From Candidatus Heimdallarchaeota archaeon (GTDB lineage: Archaea; Asgardarchaeota; Heimdallarchaeia; Heimdallarchaeales; Kariarchaeaceae), in the NCBI GenBank assembly GCA_030149205.1, contig JASBSB010000006.1, forward strand, positions 60,001 to 92,000: a DNA stretch of 32,000 nucleotides. Reading direction: 5' to 3'. This document shows, piece by piece, positions 6,270 to 19,505 of the stretch. The notes under the pieces are model-generated. The model ran no database searches and had not been told where the DNA came from. It was given only the letters and a program-made list of their open reading frames with translations. The position numbers and the translations under genes are program-made. Positions within the stretch are counted from its first letter, which is position 1, and each line of letters starts with the position of its first letter.

Positions 6270-9200
6270 TTACAGATATTTTTTGTGGGGTTTAGCTCGC
6301 TTGATAATTTGAAAGACTGGTAGTAAAAACAAGGCAATCAAAATGCCCTCTGTACTAAATGGTATGAATCCACCCCCAGCTGGTTTACTTGAAGTAGATA
6401 TTAAAATTGTCACTTTTGCAGTCCCAAAATTTGTGGTGGTCTCTTTCACTGAATCATACACATTTATAGTAATAGAAACTTTTCCATTTACCACATCTGA
6501 CGAGCTTATATCAAGCTTTACTGAATTGATTCCGGACACTAGAGAGTGATCATTGAAAGTGAGGACATTTCCAACAAATAAATCATAATGATCAACCTTC
6601 ACATCATCTGTTGCGTTAAACTTAACTGTTAATGATAGTTTACCTGAACTATTCATTGTGAATGCTTGATTTGCTTTTGGTTCAAGTATGTTAACTACTG
6701 GTGGGGTTTTATCTAAAGAATACGATACCTTAGGACCCACACCAACCATTACAGCTTGTTGCTGCTTTACTACTGAATATGAGCTCAATAATTGAGTTTG
6801 ATCAACTCCGGGAGGAGTCAGCATATCTACCACATTTGGATCGTAGGGACCATCATCTCCTCCTCCAAGTTTCCAAGTTGATGCTGAGGTCATTCTTTCT
6901 CTAAAAGCAGAGAAATCTTGTGACCCAATTAAAACCACGTAAGCCCAATCTTGTGTTGGTGTTCCTACGATGTTAAGAGGGGCTTTAATTGTAATAGTCT
7001 TTTCTAAGGTATCTGCAATGGCAGAAACCCCAGCAAATGTCGTTTTGTTTTGATAGAGCCCGTATTGCTTAAACCCGTCAGCTCTTACCAAAGTTTCCCA
7101 GGCAAAATCAGGACTAATAAGTACATTTGGATTTTGGTCAGGTTTTGTATTTCCAGACCCGCTGATTCTATTTTTATCAATATAGATCTGAATCAAAGGA
7201 TGAGAAAATCCTGTAGGTGAATTCCAAGGATTTGTGATCTCAGAAAACTTTAATGACGCAACGAAATTATTTTTGTCATACCCGAGTTTGAAATCTAGAA
7301 TATCAAACAATCCATGTCCTGGAGCAAAATCTGGAGCTTTGGGATATGTCCCAAATTCATCTCCTGCTGGATCAGTGGTTGAGTATACAACATTAAAATT
7401 GACACCTGAAAAAGGAACTTGGAAAACAGCTGGCCCATCTTGAGGAGCTATATCTGTTTCAAAACCAGAATAAACTGCTCTGACTGAGAAAAATTCTCCA
7501 GGAGTATAATTGAAGAACTTTAGTGGAATTGACATTTCAAGAACAGAATTATAAGAAGCAAGTCCACCACTCACTACACTTTGTAGAACCCAATCACCGT
7601 TGACCACCTTCCAATAACGAAGGCTAGAATCATTAAACTGAAAGGTAACAGCATAGTTTAATTGAAATCCTAGGGTATTAGAGAAGTTAGTTTTATCTGC
7701 ACCTATAGGGAAAATTGCCCCTGACGAATCTTGAGGATTTTTGAAATAAAGACCCATAAAATCATTTGAAGAGCTACGAGCGCTTGATGACTCGAGGTCA
7801 AATTCATAAAGTAAGTTAGATGTGTTGCTATTTATCCCCGCACGCATATAGTTTATTGCCAGAAATTCAACGGAGGTATCATTTATGAAATATGCTCCAT
7901 CCCATTCTCCAGAAGCTTTAGTTCCATCGATAGAATACCCCGTCATTTTTGTTGGAAAACTGGAACTAATTGATGGTTTCTGTTCTAAAAATAGTAATGG
8001 GTTTATTGCTAATATTTGAGCATTCGTGTAGCCTATATTTACGTAAACATTTCTCAAGAATGATTTAAAGCCCCAATCAAAAACGTAGTCATGTCCAGAG
8101 TTTTGATCTGTTCCATACCACCAGAACCAATCTGAACCTTCAGCTTTGTAAATTGATTCCCATGCAGCGGTGGTGTTATAGGTTGGATTGGCTTTCTCAA
8201 AGTTGACTAAATCAGTCCTGGTTTGAATCAACCAATCCCAAGCGTTATTCTCCTCAGCTTCACCTATCCAAGTGTTCAGGTTTCCACTAATCCAAGAGCC
8301 TGATGCAAGTTTGTTGACCACAGGAAGATTTTTTGTACCAAATGTGTTGATAAATTGGGTTGGGGTTACAGTTTTTAACCATCCCTCTGTTTGGGCTTGT
8401 TCAAGTTTCGCGTAGAGATCATTTCTAAAGATGTTTCCTGTATACTCGTTTTTGCCATCTCCGTTAATATCATAACTGTAATGTTCCCATGCATTTTCTC
8501 CATCCAATGCAACAGTAATAATATAAGGTGTTGTCTTTGCAGGAGCCTTTTGTAATTCATTATAACGAGTTTTAAGCTCATTATAGAAATCTTGAGCTGC
8601 CTTTGCTGGATCCATTCCAGAGTAGGTGAATCCAATTTTATCTGAAAGTGCTGTATCTCGATAAAGGCTTGCAATCTCATATGATTTTGTACCATTTGTT
8701 GCTTTAACTTTGTACATCTGGTATTGTTGTTCTGGGGTTAATGAACTCAGTCCTAAACTATTTTGGAGGACGGTTTGGTCAGATACAAACCATTTAATAC
8801 CAGAAGCATTCATCAAAGGAACCACGTCGTTTGAAACTGCTTCCTCACTTGGCCACATACCAGTTGGTAATGTTCCAAACTTGGTTTTATAATATTGTAC
8901 TGCCTTGACAATTTGTGCGTTTGCATCTGAAACCCAGCCTGTATTTCCTTTGGGAAGGGGAAGGTTTCCATTTCCTGGTGAATCTCTTGCAGAAGTGAGA
9001 TTGATTAATAATGGTAGTATAGGATGGTAGAAGGGAGTTGTAATAATCTCGAGATTCCCCTGATTTTTTGCCAGATTATGTTTGGGTACAACAGATTTCA
9101 AAAGGTCTAATCCCTTCGTTAAAACATAGTCAAGATTACTATGAGAAAATCGACCGGTGCTATTACTAGTTTCAATATCATTGTTCAAAGTTGCGAGAGT

Positions 9201-9794
9201 GAAATCAGCCTTAATGTAATCTGGGTTAATCCATCTTAAGAAGAACATCACCTTTAAATCAAGGAGATCCCCATTCGTGAAATGAGCAATCTTCTCAGCC
9301 ATGGTAGGATATTTGTTTGCCTTTTCCTGAAGATAAGCATATCTTCCAGTTACAAACTGGGGGTTAATGTCGAAGAAAAATTGTAAAACAACAGATTTGT
9401 TTTCGGCACTCATTGCAGTCTCTTGCATTTTTGCAACCTGAATTCTTCTATCGTAAGCAACACCATTTGCGTAATCATCCATTTGAGAGAGAAGAGACGG
9501 TGTGAGGTTAATTGTTGCGTTCACCTTGGGATGATTTATCATTAGGTCTGCCATCCAGGGATATGAATTAGTAGAATGCATGTAGACCCAAGGTTGTTCA
9601 TATATCTTCGTTGTCGGATCCTGATAGTTCGGTTGGTGCTGATGCCAGATCAATGAAAAATAGACCGGTGTAACAGCTTGTTTACTGATCAGAATCGGTT
9701 CCGAAGTAGATCCTGCAATCGATCTATTCGTACTTGATGAGAACAAAAAAATCAGAATGAGGAATATTGGAATCAAATAATTTTTTACTTTCAT
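6270..9794 (-). CDS. apu: Cell-surface GH57 amylopullulanase with DOMON-like/glucodextranase-C domains, Ig-like domain and C-terminal membrane anchor
   Basis: Signal peptide MKVKNYLIPIFLILIFLF (ATG 9794; ORF track starts at TTG 9809). GH57 motifs WHQHQP, TPFYHPILPL, GMWPSE (nucleophile), ALDGENAWEHY (acid/base) and AEGSDWFWW. C-terminal DPAGD...FSHPLIQIYID...DPNVVDML domain and GGGFIP-TM-basic tail. Confidence 0.93.
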   Translation of the reverse strand: MKVKNYLIPIFLILIFLFSSSTNRSIAGSTSEPILISKQAVTPVYFSLIWHQHQPNYQDPTTKIYEQPWVYMHSTNSYPWMADLMINHPKVNATINLTPSLLSQMDDYANGVAYDRRIQVAKMQETAMSAENKSVVLQFFFDINPQFVTGRYAYLQEKANKYPTMAEKIAHFTNGDLLDLKVMFFLRWINPDYIKADFTLATLNNDIETSNSTGRFSHSNLDYVLTKGLDLLKSVVPKHNLAKNQGNLEIITTPFYHPILPLLINLTSARDSPGNGNLPLPKGNTGWVSDANAQIVKAVQYYKTKFGTLPTGMWPSEEAVSNDVVPLMNASGIKWFVSDQTVLQNSLGLSSLTPEQQYQMYKVKATNGTKSYEIASLYRDTALSDKIGFTYSGMDPAKAAQDFYNELKTRYNELQKAPAKTTPYIITVALDGENAWEHYSYDINGDGKNEYTGNIFRNDLYAKLEQAQTEGWLKTVTPTQFINTFGTKNLPVVNKLASGSWISGNLNTWIGEAEENNAWDWLIQTRTDLVNFEKANPTYNTTAAWESIYKAEGSDWFWWYGTDQNSGHDYVFDWGFKSFLRNVYVNIGYTNAQILAINPLLFLEQKPSISSSFPTKMTGYSIDGTKASGEWDGAYFINDTSVEFLAINYMRAGINSNTSNLLYEFDLESSSARSSSNDFMGLYFKNPQDSSGAIFPIGADKTNFSNTLGFQLNYAVTFQFNDSSLRYWKVVNGDWVLQSVVSGGLASYNSVLEMSIPLKFFNYTPGEFFSVRAVYSGFETDIAPQDGPAVFQVPFSGVNFNVVYSTTDPAGDEFGTYPKAPDFAPGHGLFDILDFKLGYDKNNFVASLKFSEITNPWNSPTGFSHPLIQIYIDKNRISGSGNTKPDQNPNVLISPDFAWETLVRADGFKQYGLYQNKTTFAGVSAIADTLEKTITIKAPLNIVGTPTQDWAYVVLIGSQDFSAFRERMTSASTWKLGGGDDGPYDPNVVDMLTPPGVDQTQLLSSYSVVKQQQAVMVGVGPKVSYSLDKTPPVVNILEPKANQAFTMNSSGKLSLTVKFNATDDVKVDHYDLFVGNVLTFNDHSLVSGINSVKLDISSSDVVNGKVSITINVYDSVKETTTNFGTAKVTILISTSSKPAGGGFIPFSTEGILIALFLLPVFQIIKRAKPHKKYL

Positions 9795-9944
9795 TTGGAA
9801 TTTCTCCAAGTATTAGACCCGATACAAATTGTGTAAATTTTAATCTTTAGGAATAACAATAATATTTTTGGATATTAGCACAACTATTTGTTTTTAAGAA
9901 ATTTAACAATTTGCGAAATTTTTCCATTAATTTTAGACACTATA

Positions 9945-9977: not shown

Positions 9978-11348
9978 TTAATGAACAGAAAAATCATGGT
10001 TTTCAAGGCTAATACCTGATTTTTCATCAAATAGATGTGTTTGAGCACCAGAAAATCTGAAGTGGATTTCTGAACCAATTTTACGTGGTTTATGTCCAAT
10101 TTCACTTAATCTAACCTCTGAACCGAACAGATTGACAAAGATGATTGTAGAAGAGCCTATTGATTCAGTAAAGGTGACTGTACCTGTGATGGAATTAGAG
10201 TCTTTTATTGACAGGATTTCTACCTGTTCTGGACGAAATCCAATAATAACTTCGTTTCCAATGTGGTTTTCTAATAAATCTGGATTTGGATAATCGGATG
10301 GTATTTTGATGAAAGACCCCTCATTTACACGAATTAAAAGTTGTTTCCCTTGTTTGGTAAGTTCACCTTTAACAAGGTTTGTAGGAGGAGCACCAATAAA
10401 CCCAGCAACGAAGGCAGTTCGAGGTTTGTTATACACCTCGCTTGGTGTCCCTAGCTGTTCAATCACGCCTTTGTTCATAACTGCAATTCTATGCCCTAGG
10501 GTCATAGCTTCAACCTGATCATGGGTCACATAAAGTGTTGTTGTTTGTAACTTTGACTGTAATTCTGCTAATTCAGCTCTGGTTGAATTTCTTAACTTTG
10601 CATCAAGATTAGACAATGGTTCATCCATAAGAAATACCTTGGGGTCTCGAATTATGGCACGACCAACTGCAACCCTCTGTCTCTGACCTCCAGACAATTG
10701 CTTTGGCTTTCTATTTAACAGTTCTTCAATTTCCAATATTTCAGCAGTCTGTTTGACCCGTGTCTCAATCTCTTCAAGTTGGTTAATATAATCATGAATA
10801 CCAGGAATCCCAATCGAAAATTTTAACACAAAATACTCTATATTTTTTCTCAATTCAGGATAAACAATCCAAGCTATAACGAAGGATAATGTTATAGCTG
10901 AGAAGAAGACTACCCCAGGAGATCTTAAGATAAATGAATCTAAGATATAGCCAAACGCATAAAAAACCGAAAAGAGTAAAGTATAAGCCAAGAGTTTTAA
11001 CAAACTAACTATTACCTTTTGGGGGGTTGATAAGGTTAGATTCTTTAAACCGAAGGCTAAATTATCTCTGACTGTCATATGAGGATATAAGGCATATGAT
11101 TGAAACACCATTGCAATATCTCTGTCCTTAGGTGGTAATCTTGTGATATCATCGTCATCAACTGTGATTGTACCTGTGGTTGGTGTCTCTAGACCTGCTA
11201 ACATTCGGAGTGTTGTAGTTTTGCCACATCCTGAGGGCCCAACTAAGACCATGAATTCCTTATCAGTTATTTCTAAATTAAGATTTGACACTGCAGGTTT
11301 GTTGGTGCCAAACTGTTTTGTTATTTCATTAAATTTTACCTTTGCCAA
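9978..11348 (-). CDS. malK: Carbohydrate ABC transporter ATPase (MalK-like) with an inserted hydrophobic hairpin
   Basis: Walker A GPSGCGKT, Q-loop VFQSYALYPHM, signature LSGGQ, Walker B FLMDEPLSNLD, H-loop YVTHDQ and C-terminal TOBE region (GFRPE). TTG start preceded by SD AAGGTGA. About 85 extra residues at aa 104-188. Confidence 0.93.
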   Translation of the reverse strand: MAKVKFNEITKQFGTNKPAVSNLNLEITDKEFMVLVGPSGCGKTTTLRMLAGLETPTTGTITVDDDDITRLPPKDRDIAMVFQSYALYPHMTVRDNLAFGLKNLTLSTPQKVIVSLLKLLAYTLLFSVFYAFGYILDSFILRSPGVVFFSAITLSFVIAWIVYPELRKNIEYFVLKFSIGIPGIHDYINQLEEIETRVKQTAEILEIEELLNRKPKQLSGGQRQRVAVGRAIIRDPKVFLMDEPLSNLDAKLRNSTRAELAELQSKLQTTTLYVTHDQVEAMTLGHRIAVMNKGVIEQLGTPSEVYNKPRTAFVAGFIGAPPTNLVKGELTKQGKQLLIRVNEGSFIKIPSDYPNPDLLENHIGNEVIIGFRPEQVEILSIKDSNSITGTVTFTESIGSSTIIFVNLFGSEVRLSEIGHKPRKIGSEIHFRFSGAQTHLFDEKSGISLENHDFSVH

Positions 11349-11363
11349 AATAATTTCACCTTT

Positions 11364-12908
11364 TTATTTGATTCCACCACTGGTTATTCCTCCAGTTAAT
11401 AATCTCTGTAAACTCATAAATACAACCATGATTGGTAAGGCAGCTAATATACTAAAAGCGCTTAACAGTTGGAAGTAAGGAGGGTTATCAGGGGCGCTTG
11501 TGTTCTGATACAGATAGAACATTAATGGTAGAGAGGAAGATGGATTTTTCTCTCCAACAAAGATTTGAGCCAGAGCAAATTCGTTCCAAGCCCCTAAGAA
11601 TGTAAATATTGCAACTGCAACCATCCCAGGTGCTGAAAGTGGAATAGCAATTCTTAAAAACGCGCCTAGATCAGTTGAACCATCAATTAATGCAGCCTCT
11701 TCAAGGTCATAGGGTAAAGTATCAAAATATCCCTTCATCATCCATACATTATAGGCTAATGCGCCAACGAAATAAGCAAGTAGCAAGCCAGATAGTTTGA
11801 ATGTTCCCCCATCAATGTAGAACAGAGGAATAGAGAAGAGATAAATCTCTCGTCCTCCACCAAAAAAGCCGAGGTTTTTCCAAATAATAAACTGAGGAAT
11901 CAGCAGAATAATTCCAGGAAACATTTGAGTTGCAAGAACAAGAAATTTAGAAGTGTTTCTCCCTTTAAACTTGTATCTTGAAATTGCATAAGCAGCTGGA
12001 AGGGATATAAACATACCTCCGAGTGATGTCCCAAATCCTAAAACAAGTGAGATCATGAATGAGCTTGAAAATGAGGAGCTGTTGGGATTGATTATAAAAA
12101 TTACACTAGAATAATTTCTTACGAAGCTTCCCAATGGGTCACTTGGAACTATAGATTGTTTTTGAATGTCAACAGCATTACTCATTGAAAGGATTAATGT
12201 GTACACTATTGGCACCACGGTATAAATAAAAAATAAAATAAGGATCAAAAAAGTAAAAAGGCTGGTTAAAGAGAAGTTTAAATTTTGAAAGAGATTTTTC
12301 CTTGACTTATCTTGAATTTTTCCAACCTGATCTAATTTAAGATTTGACCTATACCTCTTTACCGACAAAACTGTCCCAATCATTGAAATGGAAAAAAGAA
12401 CCCATATATTGAGGTTTAATATTAGCTGAAAGAGTAGATCACGTTCAGAATAGGTAGCTGACATTGGTAGGGGAATACCCACAAACTGCCATGCGTGTGA
12501 ACTTAAGGAATTTAATTCATTCACCAGCCAGTTATTTGGAGTAATTTTATAAGATTCACCTGTCCAAAACGCAAGAAACCAGAGAAAATAACTAATGAGC
12601 ACCATGACCATAGATGGCTTTAACCCCTTACTATAATCCACCTTAAAATAGAAATAAAGAACGGAGATTGAAAAAATACCTCCCATAAGCGTCATTACAA
12701 TTAGATTACTGAGGATTTGGGGAACATATACATCAGTAGGATAATCTCCCCTTGGAAAGAGAGGAGGGGGTGAGGTCCACTGTCCTACAATATAAGTAAC
12801 TCGGTTCCATATCTTTAGCTGAAAATTCCAAAATGCCCACATGAACATCATTGCAGTAAATAAAATTGTTAAAAAGGAAAACAATTCCCCTTTGCTTCTA
12901 TCAGTCAT
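11364..12908 (-). CDS. malG: Carbohydrate ABC transporter permease MalG-like with about 200-aa N-terminal membrane extension
   Basis: AAYAISRYKFKGR, QMFP and EAA loop YFDTLPYDLEEAALIDG; start overlaps the malF stop (GAGGAGG SD, ATGACTGA). Confidence 0.9.
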   Translation of the reverse strand: MTDRSKGELFSFLTILFTAMMFMWAFWNFQLKIWNRVTYIVGQWTSPPPLFPRGDYPTDVYVPQILSNLIVMTLMGGIFSISVLYFYFKVDYSKGLKPSMVMVLISYFLWFLAFWTGESYKITPNNWLVNELNSLSSHAWQFVGIPLPMSATYSERDLLFQLILNLNIWVLFSISMIGTVLSVKRYRSNLKLDQVGKIQDKSRKNLFQNLNFSLTSLFTFLILILFFIYTVVPIVYTLILSMSNAVDIQKQSIVPSDPLGSFVRNYSSVIFIINPNSSSFSSSFMISLVLGFGTSLGGMFISLPAAYAISRYKFKGRNTSKFLVLATQMFPGIILLIPQFIIWKNLGFFGGGREIYLFSIPLFYIDGGTFKLSGLLLAYFVGALAYNVWMMKGYFDTLPYDLEEAALIDGSTDLGAFLRIAIPLSAPGMVAVAIFTFLGAWNEFALAQIFVGEKNPSSSLPLMFYLYQNTSAPDNPPYFQLLSAFSILAALPIMVVFMSLQRLLTGGITSGGIK

Positions 12909-14532: not shown

Positions 14533-16014
14533 TCACTTTTTCTTTGATTTTCTTCTTTTAATGTCTTGAATCACTGGGATACTAACCAACAAAATAGGAA
14601 CCACTATGAATTGAAAATCTCCCGGGTTTATTGTTGATTTAGATGTAGGCGTACCAGTACCTCCACTTACTAAAATGTCGCTCCAAAACGTGGTAACAAC
14701 ATCAATAAATTGACTTAGTGTTTCATTTCCAGCTAAGTAATTATCAAGTTCAGTTCCAAAAACGGTTTCCAACTGAGCCCATTTTGGATCCACGGGATTT
14801 TTATATGCTCGATCTATAATTCCCTTTATAGCTTTAATATAAGTCCAAGCCGGGGAATTCGTCACTGCAGGGTCTTTAAACACAGATTCACGGGCAGGAA
14901 CATGGTAATAACTTATTGCAGCTTCTGCCATGGCATGAGCAGAACTCATAAATCTGGAGAATTTCATGGCTGCTTCAGCAACCGCACCAGTTGCCCTCTT
15001 GGTTATAACGTAAGCATGTCCACCTAAAGGTGCTCCCTCGTGTCCCTGTTCATCATGTGGTAACCTCATTATCCCTAGATTGGAAGCTGATGCCCAGGTT
15101 CTTGAGCCTGGTGCGGATTTATTGAATTCAGGGGCATTCGTTAGAAAGTTCTTTAACTCCCAAGGCCCCTGTTGAATAAATCCAACTTGTCCTGTGGTAA
15201 ACATAGGATTGATTGTACTCCACCCTTGTTGATCCCAAGGAGGAGTATATGGGGCTGTAACCACATCCTTAAGGAAGGTTAAAGCAGTTCTTGATTCTGT
15301 AGAGTTAATATCTATATTAGCAAATGAGACATTGTCATTCTTAAAAAATCGAGCCCCGTGTCCGTAATATATAGGCTGGGCTCCGAAAAACATTCCTTGC
15401 AATGTAAGCCCATAAACGGGTTTACCTTCAGGATTTTTTAACTGCTTATCCCAAATTTGTTTTGTATAGTTAGTGAATTGCGACCAAGTTAACGAGGTAT
15501 TTAGGGTAAACTTCGTTGTATTAATTCCTGCGTTCTCTAATGTATGTTTGTTATAAAACAGGGCGGGGACATCCACAAGTTGAGGCCATCCCCAAATCTG
15601 TTCGGTTCCTGATTTATCAGGGTAAGACACTAACCTCAAGGCATCTGCGATGAAATCTTTCTTATCGGTTGCATTCAGGTAGGGAGTAATTGGTTGAATT
15701 AGTCCCTGTTGGGCAAATTCCACCACCCAATCTCTTGCTGCCCTAAATACTGTAGGTTCCAACTGGGCACTAAATTGTGTCAGATACGTTTCCTTTGCAC
15801 TGAAAAAGCCCTTTGCCTCTGCTTTAACATTTATTGTGGGATTTGCTGTCTCAAATTCCTTAACTAAACGAAGAACACCTGGTTCTTCACTAGAGTTTTC
15901 AGTGTACCAAAATGTAATTTTTACTGTACTCGTTTGTGCGAATGTGCTACTTGGAAGTACAGAAAACATAAACATGAAAATCACTATAATTGGGAGAATT
16001 ATTTTTTTATTCAT
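14533..16014 (-). CDS. malE: Maltodextrin ABC transporter solute-binding protein, C-terminally anchored
   Basis: Signal peptide without lipobox; ITFWYTE, IWGWPQLVDVPALFYNK, FIQQGPW and LGGHAYVI motifs; S/T linker then PGDF-TM-KRRKSKKK; SD AGGAGG. Confidence 0.87.
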   Translation of the reverse strand: MNKKIILPIIVIFMFMFSVLPSSTFAQTSTVKITFWYTENSSEEPGVLRLVKEFETANPTINVKAEAKGFFSAKETYLTQFSAQLEPTVFRAARDWVVEFAQQGLIQPITPYLNATDKKDFIADALRLVSYPDKSGTEQIWGWPQLVDVPALFYNKHTLENAGINTTKFTLNTSLTWSQFTNYTKQIWDKQLKNPEGKPVYGLTLQGMFFGAQPIYYGHGARFFKNDNVSFANIDINSTESRTALTFLKDVVTAPYTPPWDQQGWSTINPMFTTGQVGFIQQGPWELKNFLTNAPEFNKSAPGSRTWASASNLGIMRLPHDEQGHEGAPLGGHAYVITKRATGAVAEAAMKFSRFMSSAHAMAEAAISYYHVPARESVFKDPAVTNSPAWTYIKAIKGIIDRAYKNPVDPKWAQLETVFGTELDNYLAGNETLSQFIDVVTTFWSDILVSGGTGTPTSKSTINPGDFQFIVVPILLVSIPVIQDIKRRKSKKK

Positions 16015-17392
16015 TGTTTCGCCTCCTTTTTCTAAGAAGTAATGCTACCGAAAATATTGCAAACAGCCCAGTTATAAATAGAAAACTTGGGCTTGATTTA
16101 GCCACACTATTTAGTGGTGTAAATTCTGGTAGATTCGACCAAGGTGAGCTTGGTGGAACCAACAATCTGAGAGCTATGTCTAAAGAGAGTGTGGTCCTTG
16201 GTGCGTTTTGATTTCGTTGAACAAATTTTGTCATCTGATTATTAAAAACATCGAGAACAGACAACCAAGCTGGGTCATGGGGCAGATCTAAAAATACGTT
16301 CATTGAAGTGTTTGCTACTTTTCCGAAATCAGTTGTAAGATCCAAAAATGATGTATTCACTGGTAAATATGATGCTTTTACCAAATTATCTTGTGTATTT
16401 TTGTTTCTCAACATTGCACTTATGGTTTTAACCAAAGGCATATCAGAGCTTTTTGCTTCAGTTGTAAGAAAAACAGAGTATGTTTCAACTGGAGCTGGAG
16501 CAGGCATTGGATATAATCCTAGATTACTCTTACCTGAAAATACTGTTCCCTTGGAAATATCATTGTATTTCAGTGATGAAGCAATGAGCATAGCAAGGGT
16601 CCCATTTGTCTTAAACAAGGATTCAGAACCACCATTCTCCTGAAGCGCCCAATCAGGTGCTGCTTGCTTGACATTTATTGTTTCATTGATGTTAGTTAAT
16701 GCAGCTAATGATGCATTACTATTCACAGAAAGATGAGCAACATCCACTGTGTTATCTTTGAACAAAGCACCCCCTAAACCATAAAACAGGGATAACATTG
16801 GATCTTGAACACTTTCAAAACCGACACCAAACACTTTTTTCAGAGGGTTGGATTGATCGTTTGATTGTACTGCTGCATCACTAAACTTTTTAATTGTATC
16901 TACACTGACCTTGTTGAGGTTTACTAAATCTTTATTTAGGTAAAGAAACTGAGTTGTCGAAGCAAAACCATATCCATAGAGCTTTACCGTGTTGTTTATG
17001 ATACTAGCAGTAGTTTTAGTGTTAGGAGATACTTCAAAAAAACTTGATCCACGATAAATTGATGGAAACACTCCCGCTTCACTCGAATTTGACACAACTT
17101 TAACAAGATTTCTTGTTGCAAGTTGAGGGAGTAAACTATCTGAAGTTATAAGAATCTTAGGGAGTGTCCCTAAAATTTTCTTTCTTACTAGATCATTTAT
17201 TAGCGAACTCTGTGAAACTGTTGTGATCTTGTAAGATGACCCAAGCGATGACGTCACAAGTGTCCCTAATGATTGGGGTACTGATACTATTATCTCAGTC
17301 TGAGATTGTGCTTGAGTGGGAATAACTGATAAGTTCATCCCAGCAGCTAATAATACTACCAGTACAACTGAAAAAAATAATTTTTGTTTCAT
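16007..17392 (-). CDS. Divergent MalE-fold solute-binding protein, C-terminally anchored
   Basis: Colinear similarity to the adjacent malE (LYGY..TTQFLYLNKDL; YGLGGALFKDN..SVNSNASLAAL; W..V..VF..QM..FV). ATG 17392 preceded by AAGGTGA (ORF track starts at GTG 17401). SPSF-TM-RKRRR tail. Confidence 0.7.
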   Translation of the reverse strand: MKQKLFFSVVLVVLLAAGMNLSVIPTQAQSQTEIIVSVPQSLGTLVTSSLGSSYKITTVSQSSLINDLVRKKILGTLPKILITSDSLLPQLATRNLVKVVSNSSEAGVFPSIYRGSSFFEVSPNTKTTASIINNTVKLYGYGFASTTQFLYLNKDLVNLNKVSVDTIKKFSDAAVQSNDQSNPLKKVFGVGFESVQDPMLSLFYGLGGALFKDNTVDVAHLSVNSNASLAALTNINETINVKQAAPDWALQENGGSESLFKTNGTLAMLIASSLKYNDISKGTVFSGKSNLGLYPMPAPAPVETYSVFLTTEAKSSDMPLVKTISAMLRNKNTQDNLVKASYLPVNTSFLDLTTDFGKVANTSMNVFLDLPHDPAWLSVLDVFNNQMTKFVQRNQNAPRTTLSLDIALRLLVPPSSPWSNLPEFTPLNSVAKSSPSFLFITGLFAIFSVALLLRKRRRNNE

Positions 17393-17511
17393 TATACTCA
17401 CCTTCGTGTTAAAAAAACATCTAGACTCACTTAAAAAAGTAATCGTTCTTATAACTGTGACCTAGGTGTCTTTTTGGATAAATTTGTAAGTTCAAATTTA
17501 TTTGATAATTT

Positions 17512-17524
17512 TGGAAAATTTACA
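17512..17524. promoter_or_regulatory. Candidate sugar-regulon operator (TGGAAAATTTACA) upstream of the SBP/mal operon
   Basis: One mismatch to TGRAAAWTTTYCA; overlaps the glgP stop; about 57 nt upstream of TATA-like GTTATAAG (17455-17448). Confidence 0.5.
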
Positions 17525-19505
17525 GCTCGTAGAGAGTTTTGTAATCCAAAACCATACGATGAGAGGAAAATTTTGGACCAACACTCTCTATTGAGTTTCT
17601 CATTCTTTGAATCCAATTTTCTGGTAGACCTGATTCATTTAACTCATAATATTCAGGAATCACTTTATGTTCTAAAATTTTAAGGAGTGAATCCCAATCC
17701 TGTTGATCTTGTTCTGGAGGACTTAAAGCAGGATCATATTTTCCAATCACCCAGCCATTTTTTTCATTGAATGCTTCGGGCCACCAGCCGTCATAGGTTG
17801 AAAGGTTCAAAACACCATTAATTGATGCTTTCATACCGCTTGTTCCAGATGCCTCACGAGGGACTCTCGGAGTATTTAACCATACATCTACTCCACTGAC
17901 TAAATGTTTTGCTGTTGTCATATCATAATCTGGAACGAATGCTACTCTCCCTAAAAATTCTGGATCCTTTGCGTGATCATAAACCATTTGTAATAGAGCT
18001 TGACCCTCTCTGTCTGCAGGATGAGGTTTTCCTGAGAAAACGATCTGAATTGGTCTGGTTGGATGGGTTACTAATTTTTTAATTCTCTCAATATTCTCGA
18101 AAATAAGTGTAGAACGTTTGTATGTTGCAAATCGTCTTGCAAACCCAATTGTCAATATTTTTGGGTCAAATAATATCCCATAGGGAAGTAGGTTCTCAGG
18201 GTTAATTTCCCTATCTATTTTGGTTGTTACCCTTCTTTTGAAAAATTCCATCATCTCAATTTTTGCCAGATAATGGGTTTCCCAAAGCTTATGGTTGGAT
18301 ATTTTAAATGTATTCCAACTCTCAGGTTTGACATATTCATGTGGATCAATTTGGTCTAAATTTAACAGATGTGCAAGTTCTGTGTTCAAAAACGTTTGAA
18401 TATGTACGCCATTAGTTACAGGTACAATTTTCAAATTTTCTTTTATTAGAAAATCAGTCCAAAGTCTGTTCAATGCGGTCGCGTTCAGCTTACTCACCCC
18501 ATTGACTGTCTTTGCAAGTTTCATGCCTAGAACGGTCATGTTAAATCCCTCTCCATAACCCAAATCATGTACGCCTAATCCCCTAATATCAGAGAACTCT
18601 AAGGGAGATCCTTGGAAATACTTCTTAAATAAAGAATCAACCATATTCGGGTCGAAGACATCATGTCCTGCAGGTACAGGTGTGTGCGTGGTAAATAAAA
18701 TTTTTGATTTTAGGTTTTTGAAAGCTTCTTCTTTTGTTTGGTGTGATTTTATTAGGTGCTTCCATAAAGCGATTCCCCCGAAAGCCGCATGTCCTTCATT
18801 AAAATGATAAACATCAAATTCTAAATCAAGCATATTTATTAGTTCAATGCTTCCAACACCTAGAATATATTCTTGGTGAAGTCTTGTGTTTATATCACCA
18901 CCATAGAGCTGACTTGTTATTGTTCGCTGTTCGTCGGAGTTTTGTTTCAAGTTTGTATCTAATAAATATAAATTCACAGAACCCACTTTAACTAACCAGA
19001 CTGCAATGTAAATTTCAGAACTATAATATGGCAGTTGTAGTATAATTGGAACACCATTAGAATCAGTAACCCGTTGAGTAGGGATAATATCTAAATCTAG
19101 ATTTTGAGATTCTACTTTTTGTTCTCCATTATCATTGACAACTTGATGAAAATAGCCATCTTTGTATAGGAGACCAAAAGCTGTAACATCAACACCTAAG
19201 TCAGAAGAAGCCTTAAGATGATCCCCCGCTAGTACACCTAACCCACCAGAATAAATTGGAAGACTATCATGAATGGCATACTCCATACAAAGGTAAGCAA
19301 TTCGTTTCCCACTTGGTTTAATTCTGACTTTTTGAACATTCAATTCAGATAAATCAAAATTTGTAACTCTTACAAATTCAACAGGATTATGATTTACTTC
19401 TTCCCAGACCTGGGGGTTGGTCTTTTCGAAAATATCCTTTGTCTTGAAATCCCATGACCAGAAATAATTTTCCAAAATACTAAGTTGTTTTTCGAGCTGC
19501 AACAT
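17520..19505 (-). CDS. glgP: Alpha-glucan (glycogen/maltodextrin) phosphorylase, GT35
   Basis: AYLCMEY, LPIYSGGLGVLAGDHLK, HFNEGHAAF, FTTHTPVPAGHD, GFARRFATYKR, GVDVWLNTP and PLP-lysine motif EASGTSGMKA. Confidence 0.95.
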   Translation of the reverse strand: MLQLEKQLSILENYFWSWDFKTKDIFEKTNPQVWEEVNHNPVEFVRVTNFDLSELNVQKVRIKPSGKRIAYLCMEYAIHDSLPIYSGGLGVLAGDHLKASSDLGVDVTAFGLLYKDGYFHQVVNDNGEQKVESQNLDLDIIPTQRVTDSNGVPIILQLPYYSSEIYIAVWLVKVGSVNLYLLDTNLKQNSDEQRTITSQLYGGDINTRLHQEYILGVGSIELINMLDLEFDVYHFNEGHAAFGGIALWKHLIKSHQTKEEAFKNLKSKILFTTHTPVPAGHDVFDPNMVDSLFKKYFQGSPLEFSDIRGLGVHDLGYGEGFNMTVLGMKLAKTVNGVSKLNATALNRLWTDFLIKENLKIVPVTNGVHIQTFLNTELAHLLNLDQIDPHEYVKPESWNTFKISNHKLWETHYLAKIEMMEFFKRRVTTKIDREINPENLLPYGILFDPKILTIGFARRFATYKRSTLIFENIERIKKLVTHPTRPIQIVFSGKPHPADREGQALLQMVYDHAKDPEFLGRVAFVPDYDMTTAKHLVSGVDVWLNTPRVPREASGTSGMKASINGVLNLSTYDGWWPEAFNEKNGWVIGKYDPALSPPEQDQQDWDSLLKILEHKVIPEYYELNESGLPENWIQRMRNSIESVGPKFSSHRMVLDYKTLYEL

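Follow-up and report, generated by a model that had tools for sequence, protein, structure and literature searches.

A predicted membrane-spanning hairpin within the ATPase subunit of a MalK-type importer operon from Asgard archaea

The ATPase subunits of binding-protein-dependent ABC importers are peripheral proteins, held at the membrane solely via the EAA coupling helices. The closest described relatives of the system considered here are the MalK/MsmX/UgpC/SugC-type CUT1 ATPases (1v43, 2it1, T. litoralis 1g29, E. coli MalFGK2 2r6g, and mycobacterial SugABC 7cad), in which a full nucleotide-binding domain (NBD) is combined with an OB/TOBE domain, and whose importers are encoded in operons together with a binding protein and two EAA-loop permeases. 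In solved homologues the first two helices of the helical subdomain are joined by a loop of 6–9 residues, and E. coli MalK K106, a residue reportedly cross-linked to the EAA loops, falls exactly within this loop, although no mention of the K106C cross-link turned up in the papers searched. Larger elements are found in the helical subdomain of other ABC proteins, where the ABCF/EttA arm and the UvrA insertion domains are soluble inserts that bind ribosomes or DNA. Reviews of MalFGK2 single out the helical subdomain as the region of greatest variability in the NBD; it borders the cleft into which the coupling helices dock, and it rotates with respect to the RecA-like subdomain in the course of the ATP cycle (PMC6906923, PMC3150292).

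The locus described here lies in a 32,000-nucleotide stretch of DNA, analysed as a whole and referred to as the window, from Candidatus Heimdallarchaeota archaeon (contig JASBSB010000006.1), and it reproduces the organization of the solved CUT1 importers. An operon on the minus strand runs in the order 464-aa ORF, binding protein, MalF-like permease, MalG-like permease, and ATPase (Table 1), and the EAA-x3-G motif is visible in both permeases. The ATPase gene has a GGTGA sequence 8 nt 5' of its start codon, and its product scores above the cut-offs for PF00005 (113 bits, cut-off 25), OB_MalK (31.2, cut-off 27), and TOBE_2 (24.9, cut-off 21). The NCBIfam profile of the UgpC/MalK-type subfamily (NF008653) is matched at 433.6 bits, barely above its cut-off of 432, and in two stretches that skip aa 103–191. 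The E. coli-type MalK equivalog profile (NF008233) reaches 337.3 bits, below its cut-off of 568, so that the protein is a MalK-type ATPase and not an orthologue of E. coli MalK. Its catalytic motifs, reported as intact in a first-pass annotation of this DNA, are invariant in alignments with relatives, and comprise Walker A (G37–T45), Q83, the LSGGQ signature (L218–Q222), the Walker B/Glu pair D242–E243, the D-loop (S246–D249), and H276. An AlphaFold2 model built from a 14-sequence alignment (mean pLDDT 89.4) superimposes upon 2it1, 4tqu, 1v43, and 2r6g with Z values of 36–41 and rmsd of 1.9–3.0 over 346–361 aligned residues, and displays the MalK fold including the C-terminal regulatory domain. 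Likeness to the solved CUT1 ATPases extends over the core, with sequence identities of 40–52% and Z values of 36–41.

Table 1. Positions in the window of the hairpin ATPase, the parts of its insert, and neighbouring genes.
Feature	Positions	Strand	Size, basis or remarks
Surface-anchored GH57 enzyme (amylopullulanase-like)	6270..9809	minus	immediately downstream of ATPase gene
ABC importer ATPase, MalK/UgpC-type (CUT1)	9978..11348	minus	456 aa, TTG start
ATPase domains			ABC_tran, OB_MalK, TOBE_2
Insert, aa 103–191 (about 89 residues)	10776..11042	minus	alignments to PDB chains, family profiles, insert-less relatives
Return segment, aa 163–191	10776..10862	minus	AlphaFold2, alignments
Hydrophobic helix 2, aa 147–163	10860..10910	minus	Kyte-Doolittle, conservation, charge counts
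Connecting loop, aa 137–146	10911..10940	minus	charge counts; AlphaFold2 helix break at 142–146
Hydrophobic helix 1, aa 112–136	10941..11015	minus	Kyte-Doolittle; AlphaFold2 helix 108–141 encloses it
MalG-like permease, 514 aa	11364..12908	minus	six-helix core with EAA loop at aa ~218–514
MalF-like permease, 499 aa	12901..14400	minus	EAA motif present
Substrate-binding protein (SBP_bac_8/SBP_bac_1)	14533..16014	minus	hydrophobic helices at N- and C-termini
464-aa ORF	16007..17401	minus	hydrophobic helices at both termini; upstream of binding-protein gene
Glucan phosphorylase homologue	17520..19505	minus	upstream of operon

What sets this ATPase apart is a long insertion in the helical subdomain, in the loop linking its first and second helices, after the FGLK sequence and before EI..RV, which in sequence falls between the Q-loop and LSGGQ. 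A phmmer comparison to solved structures aligned ATPase residues 2–102 to residues 10–109 of P. horikoshii 1v43, and residues 192–443 to residues 116–366 of the same chain, so that aa 103–191 stand in place of a 6-residue loop. In comparison to insert-less ATPases of the same archaeal family, the alignment yields a net gain of ~83 residues. The first-pass annotation had placed some 85 extra in-frame residues at 10785–11039 (aa 104–188) and had proposed an alignment by which to delimit them; this estimate falls inside the boundaries given by the two-stretch alignments (aa 103–191, 10776–11042). No family in Pfam or NCBIfam matched the insert. In the AlphaFold2 model it forms two helices, spanning residues 108–141 and 147–177, whose block-wise pLDDT values are 85–92, and which run on directly from the canonical helices 93–105 and 184–204. 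The second of these is kinked at Y163–P164, and the return segment beginning here opens with an [FY]-x-[ED]-x-R motif (Y163-P-E-L-R167, R167 being invariant), followed by an amphipathic helix (residues 164–177) and then by the canonical helix. Solved MalK-type chains, with a loop of ~6–9 residues in place of the 89-residue hydrophobic hairpin, cover no more than 363 of the 456 residues. The nearest large clusters retrieved by shape from the ESM Atlas align to 358–373 of the 456 residues, and no cluster with the hairpin was seen among those of at least 50 members. Given this partial coverage, the hairpin is without counterpart among these solved chains and clusters.

An insertion of this kind immediately raises the question of its authenticity. 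It could in principle be spurious or decaying, whether through misassembly, as the remnant of a mobile element, or as an intervening sequence left unspliced, in a protein that functions without it, a reading for which the rarity of the feature speaks and nothing else. Its distribution, which the first-pass annotation had suggested mapping, provides the answer. A six-frame search of related genomes identified full-length orthologues, with an insert in the same position, at 58–59% identity within the same genus and at 53–54% identity in another family of the same order, and an insert-only profile added three further families of the phylum; three other weak matches to this profile were discounted, having short or interrupted frames or no ATPase-like frame. 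In all, homologous and colinear inserts occur in 12 of the 400 sampled genomes of the phylum, in five families, and the 12 inserts (85–90 residues in length) align colinearly and almost without gaps. Identity to the window copy is 15–41% for the insert and 45–59% for the whole protein, and dN/dS values are 0.16–0.39 for the insert and 0.05–0.09 for the core, as would be expected for lipid-facing helices under relaxed but clear purifying selection. Chance is excluded, the frame being open and colinear in 11 further genomes and the insert having such a dN/dS. That 12 independently assembled genomes, spread over five families, all carry the insert in frame and at a colinear position makes misassembly very unlikely, and purifying selection together with the confident folding of the insert by AlphaFold2 as an extension of canonical helices speaks against a degenerating sequence, so that the probability of an artefact of any kind may be regarded as minute. 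A search for repeats around the insert found no direct repeats and one weak inverted repeat, and hence no sign of a mobile element. Specific candidates were also rejected, namely an intein, for which the insert is too short, too hydrophobic, and free of intein motifs, and an intron or frameshift, since the insert is in frame in all orthologues.

The hairpin ATPases form a small subfamily in Asgard archaea, not confined to the source genome. A tree computed without the insert columns groups them to one side of a single branch (support 57), a result that accommodates a single origin but is no proof of it. For some of the orthologues, identical or near-identical proteins have been deposited as 'Promethearchaeota archaeon' and 'Candidatus Thorarchaeota archaeon', annotated merely as ABC transporter ATP-binding protein. 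The insert profile found no match in 133 genomes of the Thermococcus phylum, which is weak evidence of absence, and the insert alone, searched against 1.84 billion representative proteins, retrieved one 199-aa fragment of another hairpin ATPase, one spurious repeat protein, and nothing else. A word-based search with aa 98–196 recovered the window's own protein alone, and the 12-insert profile revealed no stand-alone ancestor among proteins of 46–158 aa; among longer proteins it matched ten clusters, all of them hairpin ATPases of this subfamily.

The predicted membrane character of the insert is a second recurring property. The two strongly hydrophobic stretches singled out in the first-pass annotation were both found, and they attain membrane-spanning scores in every orthologue. 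Kyte-Doolittle peaks in the window protein are 2.03 for helix 1 and 2.17 for helix 2, to be compared to the classical threshold of 1.6 over 19 residues used here, and both helices reach at least 1.65, and mostly 2.0–2.6, in all 12 full-length orthologues as well as in one fragment. Lys and Arg average 3.55 per orthologue over the ten residues that precede helix 1 (the N-terminal flank), fall to 0.36 in the loop, and return to 3.36 in the C-terminal flank. Helix 1 has on average one basic residue, Lys or Arg, near its N-terminal end (K118, near the predicted cytoplasmic end, in the window protein), helix 2 is free of charged residues throughout the 11 aligned orthologues, and some 45–50 residues of the insert are nearly charge-free in every orthologue. 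This pattern obeys the positive-inside rule and fits a topology in which both ends of the hairpin reside in the cytoplasm, the connecting loop being predicted to lie outside the cell. Conservation along helix 2 exhibits a periodicity peak at 100 degrees, corresponding to an α-helix, and its conserved face includes the small residues A/G151–152, S/A155, and A/T159. The combination of helical periodicity and small residues within the conserved stripe suggests that this side of helix 2 faces protein.

Two properties of the hairpin count against a spanning arrangement, namely the Lys or Arg near one end of helix 1 and the shortness of the hydrophobic cores (~18–25 residues). Such short cores could belong to a non-spanning anchor, a re-entrant or monotopic wedge in the cytoplasmic leaflet that holds the ATPase at the membrane surface, and in the f20 orthologues a loop that is only mildly polar (N-L-I-x-x-G-L-G-N/D), within ~50 charge-free residues, would accord with such a wedge. 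Yet the predicted helices are 31–34 residues long, more than enough to cross a bilayer, the loop in the window's genus contains Asp and Arg, and the positive-inside pattern is what a spanning hairpin typically shows, making the wedge improbable. A self-anchoring NBD, as the first-pass annotation had it, remains the predicted state of the protein, in agreement with hydrophobicity, charge pattern, the AlphaFold2 model, and selection.

The same loop has accommodated other insertions. A second group of ABC ATPases, from a sister family within the same order (439–444 aa, 36–39% identical; L013:1495-2811, L015:1483-2814, also L014 and L016, in genomes G012, G032, G030, and G039), carries a different insert of ~85 residues, which has many Trp, Phe, Tyr, Lys, and Arg residues and reaches no membrane-spanning score; in two enlarged loci of this group (L113, L114) no permease genes are adjacent. 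MalK-like ATPases with a polar insert of ~45 residues occur in several cyanobacteria (L028-L032), and a charged, coiled-coil-like insert of ~75 residues was found in two other bacterial genomes (L033 and L034, one labelled Bacillales and the other unclassified), whose ATPases carry a second insert in the C-terminal domain. These same-site polar inserts emerged from a whole-protein scan of genome contigs dominated by ordinary bacterial MalK genes. On the sequence evidence the loop is a recurrent insertion site. More generally, the variable region between the Q-loop and the signature motif is likewise the site at which ABCF/EttA and UvrA carry a grafted helical hairpin or domain that contacts a partner.

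Such precedents give some weight to the idea that the present hairpin lies outside the lipid altogether, as a hydrophobic arm buried in a cytoplasmic protein–protein interface between the two ATPase copies, with portions of the enlarged permeases that lie in the cytoplasm, or with a regulator. Soluble inserts at the same loop in cyanobacterial and Bacillota MalK-like proteins and in the second Asgard group would be consistent with this, as would the conserved face of helix 2. The inserts of these other lineages, however, are charged and fall below membrane-type hydrophobicity, whereas here some 45–50 almost charge-free residues between basic flanks are hard to reconcile with a soluble assembly, and a buried arm is accordingly quite improbable. 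The distinction applies equally to ABCF/EttA and UvrA, whose inserts, like the polar MalK-like ones, are charged and soluble, unlike the present insert, which is as hydrophobic as a membrane-spanning segment. Since the site itself is a known hot spot at which other lineages carry soluble charged inserts, the novelty resides in the membrane character of this one. A full-text literature search turned up no importer ATPase described as having a membrane hairpin, and the searched papers, curated families, and solved structures yielded no importer of this architecture, in line with the first-pass annotation, which had known of none described.

With the membrane-spanning hairpin as the preferred reading, an architecture for the complete transporter may be proposed. 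The ATPase would serve a maltodextrin-type (CUT1) binding-protein-dependent ABC importer, and its hairpin would enter the membrane with both ends cytoplasmic and a loop of ~10 residues outside, turning the nucleotide-binding subunit into an integral membrane protein. By analogy to known MalK structures, the position of the loop would direct the hairpin toward the membrane. Considering that the helical subdomain receives the EAA helix and rotates, we infer that each hairpin stands at the periphery of the membrane domain, next to its cognate permease. With a spanning hairpin, the ATPase would probably become an integral part of a dedicated transporter comprising ~24 helices, the tally comprising ten helices in MalG, about ten in MalF, and two in each copy of the ATPase dimer. 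Most likely the hairpin would lock the ATPase permanently to this enlarged transporter, and it may also form a second, in-membrane link from the rotation of the subdomain to the permeases. As a minimal function of the hairpin, we infer anchoring and dedicated assembly.

The partner permeases are themselves enlarged, with ~10 helices each compared to six in the solved SugA/SugB. The MalG-like protein aligns to SugB/MalG from about residue 218 only, and the MalF-like protein contains at least nine hydrophobic helices, two of which (aa 264–311) are inserted relative to E. coli MalF. In every one of the nine loci with sufficient flanking sequence, the operon runs from a binding-protein gene through enlarged MalF-like and MalG-like genes, which directly precede the hairpin ATPase gene, and these flanking F and G genes are homologous to those of the window over their full length. 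Hairpin and permease extensions thus travel together; as they form one orthologous unit, this amounts to a single evolutionary observation and not to independent co-evolution. In a related genome an insert-less ATPase adjoins a permease with a different, non-homologous N-terminal extension, so that extra permease helices alone do not require a hairpin. At L112:7386-9569 (minus strand, genome G004), a related insert-less MalK-type ATPase adjoins a single 727-aa permease with 12 hydrophobic helices that appears to be a MalF–MalG fusion.

Further genes surround these components. The GH57 enzyme and glucan phosphorylase encoded on either side of the operon suggest a starch-derived oligosaccharide as the substrate, judging from neighbouring genes only. 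No Pfam match was found for the 464-aa ORF (16007..17401); orthologous loci carry two genes of binding-protein-like size, and the ORF may accordingly encode a divergent second binding protein.

Packing of the hairpin against the extra MalF/MalG helices, as tentatively envisaged in the first-pass annotation, is less well backed. The two features do co-occur, within one orthologous operon, and a co-fold of the hairpin (aa 100–195) with the MalG-like permease gave an ipSAE of 0.36, compared to 0.08 for the best control, which lends weak support to a contact. In calibration, the mark used was reached by 58 of 80 solved complexes and by two of 110 mismatched pairs, and the passes at scores of 0.60 or lower comprised seven solved complexes and both mismatches, a range that includes the present value. 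Three runs shared at least 88% of their contacts, with a partner pLDDT of 71, bearing in mind that such predictions may place hydrophobic helices against any membrane protein. The modelled interface raises the odds of direct packing between hairpin and MalG-like permease only a little. A more ambitious version of the spanning model, in which the hairpins are working parts that pack on the MalG extension and the extra MalF helices, provide a second coupling route beside the EAA helices, and so define a new 24-helix type I importer, is put forward as a tentative and rather doubtful possibility.

If the spanning arrangement is correct, the ATPase would itself enter the membrane, precisely at the subdomain whose movement accompanies the ATP cycle, changing the view of how such transporters assemble, of ATPase sharing as opposed to dedication, and of how force is transferred to the permeases. 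It would also imply that a hydrophobic hairpin can interrupt a cytosolic domain without destroying its fold, and would pose a question of biogenesis, the hairpin, flanked as it is by two cytoplasmic halves of the same domain, presumably requiring insertion of the YidC or Sec type. The subfamily offers structural biologists a defined target, to which the Asgard host adds interest without being essential to the point.

Some additional features of the MalG-like permease deserve mention. Its N-terminal extension (aa 1–216/217, 12261–12908) contains four hydrophobic helices and matches no Pfam family, and W34-N35-R36, Y39, G42, W44, P49, W115, S119, and W127 are invariant across eight orthologues. 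The AlphaFold2 model of this protein is poor (mean pLDDT 55.6) and was used solely to count helices in the extension, for which confidence is 70–82 as compared to 40–50 for the canonical core. Between core helices 3 and 4 (aa ~345–372) the window's genus has 20–30 extra residues (GGGREIY...GGTFK), which most orthologues are without, and at this same position a Thorarchaeota-type orthologue (L132) carries an insert of ~75 residues with hydrophobic helices of its own.
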